Positions 34,072-42,013 of a DNA stretch of 64,000 bases are shown here, one piece after another. Location of the stretch: positions 43,981-107,980 of the IMG/VR virus record IMGVR_UViG_3300045049_000286, one strand, 5' to 3'. Made by a program: the position numbers and the translations under genes. The notes beneath the pieces are model-generated. The model searched no databases, was not told where the DNA came from, and saw nothing but the letters and a program-made list of their open reading frames with translations. Position 1 is the first letter of the stretch. Each line of letters opens with the position of its first letter. This stretch comes from a virus.

Positions 34072-35145
34072 TCAGGGGGCCTGGGTGCGCCAGTCGGGTC
34101 CGAAGATGTTGGGGTGGACGCCGGTGGTGAGCAGGTTGGCGGTGTTGTAGTACTTCATGGTCATGCGTGGGTCTTCGTGGCCGACGTAGCGGGAGAGGCG
34201 GTGGATGGTCAGGACGTCTCCGGGCTGGGTCAGGCCCAGGGTGATGAAGGTGTCGCGGGCCATGTAAGGGTTGACGAGTTCGCCGGCGGCGGGCTGGATG
34301 CCGGCGGCTTCGCCGAGGCGGTAGAAGAGCCGGCGGATGCCGGAGGTGTCGAGGGCGTTCTGTTCGAGTTCCCCGGTGTCCTTGTTACGGATCTTGCGGC
34401 CGAGGAGGAACGGCCCGCTCGTGCGGCCGGCGAGGCAGCGGTCCAGGATCGGGTAGAGCTTGTAGCCGAGGTCGATGGTCTGCCAGTAGCCGCCGCCTTT
34501 CTTGACGCGCATGAGCTTGAGGGTGCGAATCTTCCCGCCGGCGCGGGTGCCGAGGTTCTCCACGCGGGCGAGGTGCATTTCCTCGGGGCGCATTCCAGTT
34601 CCGAGGAGCATGGCGACGCACAGTTCGCTGCGCGGGTGGTCGTCGCGGGCGGCCTCGTACAGGCTCCAGTACTCGTGGGGCTGGAAGATGTCCTTCGCGC
34701 CGATCTCGGCCGCGCTGCCGCGTGGCTTACGTCCGCGCTGCTTGGGGACGGGGTTGAACTGGACGAACTCGCGGTGGCGTTCGGTGAGGTAGTCGTAGAA
34801 CTGGGAGATCGCGGTGCGGGCGTGGTCCTTGTTCTCCTTGCCGTACGGGAGGCGTTCGCATTCCTCGACACAGGGTCCGGGGTGGTGGGTCCAGTGGTTG
34901 GAGGAGAGGTACTCCAGGTGCTGGTCGATGTCGTCCGGGCTGGCGTCGTAGGGGTGGAGCATGGGCCAGCGGTCGAGCCAGGCGACGTAGATTCGCAGGT
35001 GGCGGCGGTACACGCGGGCGGTCTCGGGGCTGTAGTCCTTGGTGAAGGCCGCGATCAGCTCGTGGGCTTCGGTGCGCTGGCCGGGAATGCGGATGCGTCG
35101 GGTGGCCCACGTCGGCCTGTACTCAGGACTCTGAGTGGTCGTCAT
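34072..35145 (-). CDS. tyrosine recombinase (XerC/D or integrase family)
   Basis: TGMRPEE, K, PYMARDTF, VGH.DPRMTMKYY; TACGAT 7 nt before ATG 35145 suggests leaderless start. Confidence 0.88.
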   Translation of the reverse strand: MTTTQSPEYRPTWATRRIRIPGQRTEAHELIAAFTKDYSPETARVYRRHLRIYVAWLDRWPMLHPYDASPDDIDQHLEYLSSNHWTHHPGPCVEECERLPYGKENKDHARTAISQFYDYLTERHREFVQFNPVPKQRGRKPRGSAAEIGAKDIFQPHEYWSLYEAARDDHPRSELCVAMLLGTGMRPEEMHLARVENLGTRAGGKIRTLKLMRVKKGGGYWQTIDLGYKLYPILDRCLAGRTSGPFLLGRKIRNKDTGELEQNALDTSGIRRLFYRLGEAAGIQPAAGELVNPYMARDTFITLGLTQPGDVLTIHRLSRYVGHEDPRMTMKYYNTANLLTTGVHPNIFGPDWRTQAP

Positions 35146-35212
35146 GTGCTCCATCGTAGCCTATGACGCACGACTTTTGCTGGTGTCCCAGCAGGTTGGT
35201 GAATATCCGCCA

Positions 35213-37975: not shown

Positions 37976-39700
37976 ATGTCGATCGCCTTTGTCTCGCCGA
38001 GCATGAGGGCCGCCGCAAGCGACCTCACCGTCTCCGTCAGCCCCCTCGGGCTGGTGGAACTCGCAGACGAGGAGTTCGAGTTAGGTAGGTACACGGACCA
38101 CGCCTGACCCGCTACGCTAACCACTGGGCGTTCTACCTCGGCTACCACTGGGCCTACAAGCGTGAGGCCGGCGAGCCGAACATCACCGTGAACTACACCG
38201 GCGCCCTGTCCCGGTACATAACGAACTTCACCTTCGGACGCGGCGTCAACTTCATGTCCGACAAGAAGTTCGAGCACATCATCCCTGCCCTCCTCGACCG
38301 CGCCTGGACCGTCGACAACGACAAGAAGTCCACGCTGTGGCAGATGGGCGAGAACGGCTCCGTCGCGGGCGACTGCTTCGTCAAGATTGCCTACGAAGCC
38401 CCCTGGCAAGACCCGGCAGGAGGTGATCACCCCGGACGAGTGAGGATTCTGCCGCTGAACGCGGCGCAGTGCTTCCCTGAGTACCACCCCCACGACCGGG
38501 ACCGATTACCGCCTCCTCCGGTTCAAGCTCAAGTACAAGTTCTGGGGGACGAGCCTCGAAGGCACCCGCCAGGTGTACACCTACACCGAGATCATCACCG
38601 ACGAGTACATCGAGGAGTACGTCAACGACGAACTGCTCGACGCCCGTGACAACCCCCTCGGCGCCATCCCGATCGTACACATCCGCAACATCTCCATCTC
38701 CGGCTCGCCGTGGGGACTCGCGGACATCGTCGACCTCATCCCGCTGAACCGAGAGTTCAACGAAAAGGCGACCGAGATATCGGACATCGTCAACTACCAT
38801 GCCGCCCCGCTGACCATCGTCACCGGCGCCAAAGTTTCACAGCTTGAGCGCGGCGCCAAGAAGGTCATCGGGGGCCTCCCGAAAGACGCCAACGTCTTCA
38901 ACCTGGAGAACGGCGTCGACCTCAACGGGCCTCTCGCCTACCTCGACCTCATCAAGAGGGCGATGCACGAGCTGACCGGCGTCCCCGAGACCGCACTCGG
39001 CATGGCACAGCCGATCTCCAACACCTCCGGGGTGGCTCTCCAAATCCAGTTCCTGCCGCTCATGAACCGGTACGAACTCAAGAAGGTCAACTACACCCTC
39101 GGCCTCAAGCGCATCAACGAACTGATCCTGCGCACGCTCTTCCTCTACGAGCCGAACACCCTGCGCTACGACCCCGACTCCCAGGGCATGAAGACGCAGG
39201 ACGACCAGCCCGACGTCCTCGACCCAGCCGACCCGGCCGTCTACAACGTCGACATCGACTGGCCGCCACCGCTGCCCATCGACCAGCTCGTCAAGCTCAA
39301 CGAGATCCAGGCCAAGCTCGCCCTCGGCCTGGAATCCAAGCGCGGCGCGCTCCGCGAACTCGGCGTCGAGTTCGTCGACGAGAAGATGTCCGAGATCTTC
39401 GACGAGCAACTGCGCGAGGCGAAGGAGGAAGGCGCGCTCGAACTTATTCGGGCGGAAATAACCTCTGCCATCCTCCAGGCCACCGGGGTTACTCCTGACG
39501 GAGAAACTCCGACACCTGCTGCGAGCGCCACCGGCGCCTCTTCTGGAGGCAGTGCCGGCACGGAAGGCGCAGGACCCCTTCCCGGTCTCCCCGGAGTCGG
39601 GGGGACAACGGACACACAGTCGATGCTGAACGAACTCACGACCCTGTCCAAGGGCACCAAACTCGCCCAGTACAGGAATCCGGACAAAAACTCGGACTGA
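37976..39700 (+). CDS. portal protein in three segments (37976-38080, 38089-38505, 38513-39700; 569 aa joined) separated by two TTA-initiated gaps
   Basis: GGAGG RBS at ATG 37976; joined reading SPLGLVELADEEFE|VHGPRLTRY...HPHDRDR|LLRFKLKYKFWG; portal-like IPIVHIRN...WGLADI and SNTSGVAL; lies between terL and scaffold. Confidence 0.88.
38078..38091 (+). other. candidate translational bypass site 1 (GAG / TTAGGTAG / GTA)
   Basis: 8-nt gap begins with in-frame TTA and ends with TAG (2/3 match to take-off GAG). Confidence 0.7.
38503..38515 (+). other. candidate translational bypass site 2 (CGA / TTACCGC / CTC)
   Basis: 7-nt gap begins with in-frame TTA and ends with CGC, read by the same tRNA-Arg(ICG) as take-off CGA. 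Confidence 0.75.
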
Positions 39701-40583: not shown

Positions 40584-42013
40584 ATGGCATCCGGAATCAC
40601 GGGGACTCCGCTTCTGTCCCCGACCCCGACGGCGTACACCGCGTCGTCCTCGTCGATGCTCACGCCGGCGATCCAGACCATCTGGTCCAAGGAGATCCTC
40701 AAGGGTTAAGGGGACCTCGTGCGGTGACGTACGAGTAAACACCACGCTGTATCGGTGAACCCCTCCAAGAGCACGTCAGGGGAATACCGAGGGAACCCTC
40801 ACCGGGGACTCCGTAGAGACTACACGCGAGGCATCTCCAACGAGGCCGGCCGAACGGTGACGTAGGTCGGGGACTCACACGGACTGGGAGATGAAGATAT
40901 AGTCCGGTCTGCACTCGATGGCAAAGGTGCAGAGCCAGGCAGAAATGACCTGGCCCCAACTGATCGGCTTGGGTAACAAACCGCTTCCAGGCAATGCCGA
41001 TCCTGCGGTTCGAGCAGTTCATGGTCAAGAAGACCGAACTCGGAACCGCGCCCGGCCTGTCCGTGAACTTCATGAGGTATCGGGCGCTCGATGGGGCTCA
41101 GCAGCTCGTCGAGGGCGTCCGCATGGAGACCCACGCGCTGACGGCCGAGCAGATCACCATCACGGTCGCCGAGCAGGGCTTCGCGGTCGCCGTGACGGAG
41201 CTTCTCCTCAACTCCAGCTTCGACGACGTGATGGCGAGCGCAGCCCGCCTCCTGGGCCGCAACATGGCCACCTACCTCGACGGGCAGTGCCGCGACACCC
41301 TCCTGGGTGCCCCGTCGGTGCTCTACGGCTACGACAAGCTCGCGTCGTGGGCGGCCGGCGAGACCCGCACTCCTCTGTCCCCGTACGACCGTGGCATGTT
41401 CGCCGACTCCGAGGCGACCATGACCACGAACGGCGGCTTCTACTTCACGGCGGCGCTCGTCAAGGACGCCGTAGAAACTTTGGCCACGAAGAATGTCCCG
41501 CGACTCGGCGAGACGTACGTGGCCTTCGTGCACCCACACCAGAGCCGCCGCCTTCGTGACGACCCGGAGTTCATCGAGGTCACCAAGTACGCGGCGCCCG
41601 GCAATTTCATGCTGGGTGAGATCGGCCGGCTCAACGACGTCGTCTTCATCGAGACGACCCAGGTGTTCCAGGGCACGTTCAACCCGCCGCCGCCCACCAC
41701 CCAGCTCGGCACGACCATTCCGGTCGGCAACAGCCAGGTGTGGCAGGGGCAGCCTGCGCGGACGGCTTCCGGTTCGATTCCGGCGATTCCTGCGGTGACG
41801 CAGGTTCCGTCGAACCCGAACGCCCCGACCAACTCCATCTACCGCGCTCTCGTCATCGGCGACAACGCGGCCGGCCACGCGATTTCGCTGCCGGTGGAGC
41901 TGCGCGATGGCGGCGTGCTCGACTTCGGCCGTGAGCACGCGCTGGCGTGGTACTCGATCTGGGGCCTCGGCCTCATCACGGACTACGCCGTCGTGCAGTG
42001 CGCGACGAACTGA
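40584..42013 (+). CDS. major capsid protein, two exons (40584-40699 and 40984-42013; 381 aa spliced)
   Basis: AAAGG RBS; spliced IQTIWSKEIL|FQAMPILRFEQF; N4-gp56-like motifs YVAFVHP, GEIGRL..V.FIET, DFGR...AWY. Confidence 0.92.
40700..40983 (+). mobile_element. group I self-splicing intron, 284 nt, no homing endonuclease ORF
   Basis: 5' exon ends in U with U-G in P1 (UCCUC/GGGGA 40710-14), terminal G 40983, P2 with GUGA loop, P4 UCGGU/ACCGA, R AGAGACUAC 40815-23, S AAGAUAUAGUCC 40894-905, P8 CAUCUCC/GGAGAUG, three P9 hairpins. Confidence 0.93.

Follow-up and report, generated by a model that had tools for sequence, protein, structure and literature searches.

Layout of the portal gene and its genome

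A portal gene read in three open segments, separated by two short gaps, lies on the plus strand of the window, the 64-kb stretch that forms the right-hand part of a 107,980-bp virus record from a soil metagenome (67.7% GC). Its parts are as follows.

37976-38080, plus strand: portal segment 1, 35 codons from the ATG at 37976, matching residues 1-35 of intact portals
38081-38088, plus strand: portal gap 1, 8 nt (TTAGGTAG), made of an in-frame TTA, the spacer GG and TAG as an imperfect putative landing triplet
38089-38505, plus strand: portal segment 2, 139 codons in a frame that differs from that of segment 1
38503-38505, plus strand: putative take-off codon CGA (Arg175), a rare Arg codon, also CGA in L007
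38506-38508, plus strand: in-frame TTA that opens gap 2, the proposed slow A-site codon
38506-38512, plus strand: portal gap 2, 7 nt (TTACCGC), the proposed hopped-over non-coding stretch, identical in L007 and missing from all other homologues
38510-38512, plus strand: putative landing codon CGC, synonymous with the take-off CGA
38513-39700, plus strand: portal segment 3, 395 codons and a stop (coding part 38513-39697), resuming at CTC 38513

A GGGAGG ribosome-binding site precedes the ATG at 37976, and segment 1 ends on GAG (38078-38080), the putative take-off codon of gap 1. Segment 3 is in the same frame as segment 1, with segment 2 in another. The letters at gap 2 are GAC (38494), CGG (38497), GAC (38500), CGA (38503-38505), TTA (38506-38508), C (38509) and CGC (38510-38512), followed by CTC (38513), CTC, CGG, TTC and AAG; the letters and coordinates of the original prediction agreed exactly with the sequence here. 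A 4-nt direct repeat, ACCG, flanks the gap (ACCG ATT ACCG).

Excision of both gaps (8 nt at 38081-38088 and 7 nt at 38506-38512) gives a 569-aa portal ORF, and all three segments are stop-free and align without gaps to intact relatives. Segment 3 matched the Pfam family PF05133 (SPP1_portal) with 46.4 bits (cut-off 25.5) at model positions 148-415, and segment 2 gave 22.4 bits at the adjoining model positions 13-131. With the PF05133 match running across the joined segments, the predicted product is an SPP1 Gp6-like portal protein. Segment 2 is 58-60% identical to the portals of phages Alone3 and pSt2308. In the frame of segment 3 there is a stop at 38456-38458, and ATG, GTG and TTG are absent between this stop and 38513, so segment 3 cannot initiate alone; independent initiation was ruled out on these grounds. 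Normal decoding of the UUA leads to out-of-frame translation up to a stop at 38647-38649.

Direct terminal repeats are present and CheckV rates the genome as 100% complete; the soil run it came from was also assembled independently in Logan, with the identical sequence at ~27x depth. The packaging and head genes share 50-60% protein identity with those of the Streptomyces phages Alone3, LuckySocke, GiJojo and pSt2308, and relatives sit in Streptomyces chromosomes. From the 67.7% GC, these phage relatives and the prophages in Streptomyces genomes, we infer a Streptomyces-like host. A tyrosine recombinase (PF00589) is encoded at 34072-35154 on the minus strand, directly upstream of the terminase gene, and a 606-aa serine recombinase (PF00239) at G000:35994-37814, also on the minus strand and outside the window; the two suggest a temperate way of life.

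In-frame TTA was found in 0 of 29,742 codons across 158 other called genes of the whole genome, a count taken from a codon-usage gene call. Frame scanning based on GC3 was too noisy, and a codon-usage model was applied instead. The 108-kb genome holds 164 TTA trinucleotides on both strands together, and the two at the portal gap starts are the only ones that come after a coding frame and also precede coding sequence in a different one. CGA makes up 100 of 1931 Arg codons (5.2%), which bears out the original prediction that it is uncommon in the phage genes; CTT makes up 3.5% of Leu codons and TAT 3.6% of Tyr codons. ARAGORN found no tRNA genes in the 108-kb genome, whereas its relative Alone3 encodes more than 30. 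The gap-free close relative L010 has one ordinary in-frame TTA (L010:4072, GGG CCC TTA CCG GGG) in the variable C-terminal part of the portal.

Frame breaks detected through homology to Alone3 were confined to the portal and a capsid gene split by a putative intron. This major capsid gene is interrupted by a ~284-nt insert (40701-40984), and exon 1 would otherwise stop at TAA 40707-40709. The Rfam model Intron_gpI matched 40687-40932 in a local search with 41.6 bits (E 2.6e-9), which is under the gathering score of 50, and the insert looks like a small ORF-less group I intron. At gathering thresholds the 64-kb window gave no Rfam match. Fold z-scores at both sites in the window, in L007 and at the empty L085 site were +0.9 to -0.5, no better than shuffles. 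GAGGAG precedes site 1, and a Shine-Dalgarno-like stretch was not evident before site 2. Homing endonucleases were sought beside the portal, and the two ORFs between terminase and portal matched no Pfam family.

Gap lengths and gaps in related portals

A metagenome scan for relatives gave one match, the contig L085, which is the closest relative found and has an uninterrupted portal. Its empty site 2 reads GAT CGC CTG CTC. The predicted hop product of the window is 79% identical to the L085 portal with 0 gaps over 567 residues, and both junctions are identical in protein. Gap 1 is absent in the intact relatives L085, L010 and L088. The length of gap 2 demanded by the homologues is exactly 7 nt. 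This is the length named in the original prediction, in which the hop gives HDRDRLLRFKLKY; that product is the conserved homologue sequence, and a homologue alignment run for any other gap length returned 7 nt, leaving the predicted length unrefuted. PHD and KYKF lie 16 residues apart in all related loci whose site is uninterrupted (88 of 88), and because this spacing is invariant, a portal one or two residues longer would be without precedent. In a DNA alignment of 12 close portals the inserts appear as clean blocks.

Such gaps are carried by about 20 of ~90 related portal loci from IMG/VR, GTDB genomes and one metagenome contig. Related portals had been suggested as a place to look for further TTA gaps, and close relatives did hold gaps of the same build, at seven sites in the 12 close portals. 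The common build is a codon, a slow or stop codon, 0-5 nt and a synonymous codon. The gaps in the close portals are listed below, with a slash where the gap begins.

After L30: CTT/TTAC CTC, in L008
After E33: GAG/TTACC GAG, in L006 and L086
After E36: GAG/TTAGG TAG, in the window (gap 1, 38081-38088; next codon GTA)
After E36: GAA/TTACC GAA, insert TTACCGAA, in L007
After E36: GAA/TTAT GAA, insert TTATGAA, in L009
After E36: GAA/TAAGT GCA, insert TAAGTGCA, in L012
After R41: CGA/TTA CGC, an in-frame 6-nt gap, in L005, L008 and L011
After Y52: TAT/T TAC, in L005, L008 and L011
After H56: CAC/TTAG CAC (TTAGCAC), in L086
After R175: CGA/TTAC CGC, in the window and L007 only

At E36, the putative landing triplet TAG of the window has a first-position mismatch and is also a stop triplet; L007 and L009 have a perfect GAA in this place. 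In exact-pattern scans, L007 was the only carrier of the site-2 gap besides the window. It comes from another source, an isolate with the IMG genome 2857096214, and has the identical CGATTACCGC at site 2. A looser pattern, PHDRDR followed by TTA, was also tried and set aside; its hits were mostly low-GC relatives that encode Leu176 by an ordinary TTA, plus unrelated genes.

In distant relatives, some of them at ~50% GC, the gaps lie around residues 51-57.

TGG/AGACCCTA AGG, in L047-L049
TGG/CTATAA AGG (then TAC), in L059, L071, L072 and L075
TGG/ATATAA AGG, in L031
TTC/TAGCGG TTC, in L090
TTT/ATAGG TTC, in L091
TGG/TAG TGG, in L077

Every gap opens on a stop or on a sense codon that is used very rarely, and the slow codons of the distant relatives are a stop, ATA, AGA or CTA. 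The last gap triplet is the take-off codon or a synonym in most independent cases, with a match at two of three positions in the rest. Where take-off and landing codons are not identical, the take-off codon is a rare, wobble-read one and the landing codon ends in C in 5 of 5 pairs (CTT to CTC, CGA to CGC twice, TAT to TAC and TTT to TTC). The idea of a weak take-off and a better-paired landing, put forward in the original prediction for site 2, thus appears to recur independently in every related gap with differing codons.

Two side observations were made among these loci. L059, L071, L072, L075, L031, L077 and L090 have in-frame micro-gaps holding a stop codon at portal residues 51-57, and in the L059 group pS is 0-0.10 in the 50 codons upstream of the gap versus 0.27-0.55 downstream. 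L086 is a prophage portal in the chromosome of Streptomyces sp. HMX87 (NZ_JBKKQY010000001.1, ~4.445 Mb), with two gaps 24 codons apart (GAG/TTACCGAG and CAC/TTAGCAC) across which tblastn gave one continuous match; it is a culturable candidate for work on the portal protein.

Lone gaps of 4, 7 or 8 nt in L005, L006, L009 and L012 shift more than 500 downstream codons out of the start-codon frame, and these codons remain open and conserved. For pairs sharing a gap, dN/dS downstream of it is 0.01-0.26 with dS 0.35-1.0. Judged by these ratios, the segments downstream of shared gaps are under purifying selection and are not pseudogenes. Four phages whose DNA differs at 158-204 of 1200 aligned positions (13-17%) share one and the same 9-nt gap, which includes an in-frame TAA. 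A tree built from the C-terminal 335 residues shows a patchy distribution of gaps; L085 and L010, both gap-free, are near neighbours of L007, L009 and L086, and the window is not sister to L007. Because of this patchiness, gaps may be gained, lost or exchanged quickly, and the low dN/dS of the window and L007 may predate the insertion. Short direct repeats flanking the gaps would favour precise loss via replication slippage. The in-frame 6-nt CGA TTA CGC has the same build and needs no bypass, so part of the build could reflect the origin of the inserts.

The proposed bypass and its rivals

At the single site after E36 the gap measures 8 nt in the window, in L007 and in L012 versus 7 nt in L009, and L090 and L091, with 93.7% DNA identity, have gaps of 9 nt versus 8 nt. 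A fixed +1 or -1 shift is unable to serve both lengths and a hop between matching codons is able to do so; the comparison therefore fits hopping. We consider gap 2 to be probably a programmed short translational bypass of the phiHau3 type, with a probability of roughly 0.7. The probability was set against four other accounts.

Slow A-site codons promote +1 shifts, as in prfB, Ty1 and Ty3. A +1 frameshift at CGA-UUA-C, with Tyr-tRNA on the out-of-frame UAC or with one base skipped after UUA is decoded, is unlikely here. A 7-nt gap does equal +1 in frame terms, the +1 frame through the gap (GAT TAC CGC) is open, and the authors of PMC10732093 were at first unable to exclude such a shift for phiHau3. 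Against this, the portal would carry two extra residues (DRDR-YR-LLRF or DRDR-LR-LLRF), where homologue length varies at the site in 0 of 88 loci, and peptidyl-tRNA-Arg cannot re-pair on GAU. The same build elsewhere needs +2 or -1 (8-nt gaps) or +1 after 4 nt, the E36 site would take a +1 shift in L009 and a +2 shift in L007 and the window, and the conserved synonymous landing codon would be left without a role. In another account the portal gene is simply broken, by a recent inactivating insertion, in a phage that is defective or relies on a co-infecting relative for its portal. The genome is known from metagenome data alone, gaps are patchy among close relatives so that the one in the window could be young, and the landing triplet at site 1 is imperfect. 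Two independent insertions would, however, both have to open on an in-frame copy of the rarest codon and close on a triplet resembling the codon before them, in a genome otherwise complete with terminal repeats and in a gene whose three segments are open and gapless against intact relatives. With about 20 related phages carrying gaps and the low downstream dN/dS given above, a broken gene is quite improbable.

Removal of the 7 nt before translation, by RNA cutting, editing or polymerase slippage, or a mixture of DNA that includes gap-free copies, has very little probability. The ACCG repeat could favour precise deletion by replication slippage, and this would explain the patchy distribution. 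A homopolymer run for transcriptional slippage is absent, and to our knowledge no bacterial system cuts 4-11 nt out of mRNA. The assemblies contain one form only, with the reservation that contigs hide minor variants, and only a process at the ribosome would account for the tie to the rarest codon in its in-frame position. A sequencing or assembly artefact is the least credible account, with a probability close to nil; nothing beyond the metagenomic origin speaks for it, the independent Logan assembly and L007 reproduce the site, and indels of 7 and 8 nt are an atypical error type. A variant of hopping in which TTA is read as Leu176 and the tRNA moves from TTA onto CTC was also considered and was ruled out, as these codons are not cognate.

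The preferred reading, a bypass from CGA to CGC, can be laid out in steps. In bacteria, CGA and CGC are both read by one inosine-bearing tRNA-Arg(ICG), with CGA read via I:A wobble, and in Streptomyces-like hosts UUA is read solely by the developmentally regulated bldA tRNA. The ribosome would read segment 2 up to CGA (Arg175) and meet UUA, a codon otherwise unused by the phage and for which it has no tRNA, so the A site would stay empty. Peptidyl-tRNA-Arg, weakly held on CGA through the I:A wobble, would detach, the mRNA would slip by 7 nt, and the tRNA would re-pair on CGC, with decoding restarting at CUC. The product would read ...HPHDRDR-LLRFKLKY..., as in every intact homologue, and together with an 8-nt hop at 38081-38088 a single 569-aa portal would result. 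This scheme supposes that UUA is "hungry" in the host and that one tRNA-Arg(ICG) there serves both codons.

Since normal UUA decoding ends at 38647-38649, portal yield would be expected to fall when tRNA-Leu(UAA) is plentiful, and the portal hop could tie virion assembly to the growth stage of the host. The idea put forward for phiHau3, in which bypass works as long as bldA tRNA is in short supply and abundant bldA tRNA shuts assembly down, would fit this phage in view of its recombinase genes and its relatives in Streptomyces chromosomes. Two serial hops could leave very little portal if each were as inefficient as in laboratory reporters. Low-yield decoding may be tolerable, because portal and terminase are needed in few copies per virion.

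A wider reading covers the portal gaps together and is tentative, at somewhat less than even odds. The gaps would form a large series with fast turnover, at 10 or more sites (at least), of 4-11 nt, mostly in the first 60 codons, and gained or lost between near-identical phages. TTA would be the stall codon in high-GC actinophages, with a stop, ATA, AGA or CTA in others, and the rule would be a weak wobble take-off followed by landing on a synonym with Watson-Crick pairing.

Relation to known bypass systems

As related in PMC10732093 and PMC5009743, Smith et al. (2013, J Bacteriol 195:4924) put forward the UUA-led gaps of the phiHau3 terminase as bypass sites. Antonov et al. (2023, PMC10732093) lent support to this idea, finding the g6/7/8 product in contiguous form in Streptomyces and, with UAA in place of UUA in the first phiHau3 gap, a junction peptide by mass spectrometry in E. 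coli. Their survey was of terminases only; the UUA-led terminase gaps of phiHau3 (g6/g7/g8) and of the StrepC.1 and S. catenulae prophages are still called candidates. For the Bxb1 primase, a bypass linked to UUA is raised as a possibility in a 2025 paper (PMC12646305). Our literature search found no report of gaps in portal genes.

The phiHau3 record has two 10-nt gaps, GGC/TTACTCC GGT/AAG and TCT/TTAACGG TCC/ACG (slashes mark both ends). As in the phiHau3 terminase, the window has a short frame-breaking insert with flanks that are adjacent in homologues and an in-frame TTA directly after the take-off codon, and the insert of gap 2 ends in a synonym of that codon, like GGC and GGT or TCT and TCC. 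Both phages have two gaps in series in a low-copy DNA-packaging gene, otherwise avoid TTA and belong to the temperate actinophages, and a published terminase prophage gap is, like gap 2, 7 nt long. The window differs from phiHau3 in that the gene is a portal, in an unrelated 108-kb lineage with contractile-tailed relatives (Alone3 and pSt2308), and in a spacer of 1-2 nt versus 4 nt. A 5' stem-loop and an internal Shine-Dalgarno were proposed for phiHau3, and neither is evident at site 2 of the window. The portal gaps also occur at many more sites, with relatives using a stop, ATA, AGA or CTA as the slow codon. From these sequence features, gap 2 appears to belong with the published phiHau3-type UUA-led gaps, with the portal gene as a carrier being the addition.

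The proposed hop resembles that of T4 gene 60 in take-off followed by re-pairing on a matching codon, a non-coding skip, a slow A-site triplet and one protein from two frames. T4 gene 60 has a 50-nt gap, a take-off hairpin, a nascent-peptide signal, a UAG stop and identical GGA codons; the window, in contrast, has a gap of 7 nt, the rare sense codon TTA and synonymous, non-identical codons, and no hairpin signal was found at its sites. Weiss et al. in 1987 and Gallant and Lindsley in 1998 reportedly saw tRNAs hop over short distances in E. coli reporters, at stop or "hungry" codons. Those hops are alike in covering a few nt onto a cognate codon with an empty A site as trigger, but they were low-level events in laboratory constructs, whereas the arrangement in the window is natural, conserved and required for an essential gene. 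The mitochondrial "byp" elements of Magnusiomyces capitatus are structured and 27-55 nt long (PMC5009743). Like them, the portal gaps are numerous and dispersed, differ from one relative to the next and have take-off and landing codons with some mismatches; unlike them, they are 4-11 nt long and lie in phage genes.

Programmed bypassing is among the rarest ways of reading genes, with T4 gene 60 as the only well-studied case. The portal series, with ~20 differently built relatives, variable length at one site and the asymmetry of weak and strong pairing, separates hopping from frameshifting by comparison. Its gap variants are a natural set for reporter tests, and the value lies more in the series than in site 2 alone; if the series is true, it would offer data, already at hand, from which to work out how short ribosome hopping is governed. 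The series also bears on annotation, in which the gapped portals end up split into two or three fragments or labelled pseudogenes. If the series holds, the gaps would also sense tRNA availability (bldA in Streptomyces) and gate the assembly of virions in temperate phages; temperate actinophages may thereby couple capsid assembly to the bldA-controlled developmental state of the host.
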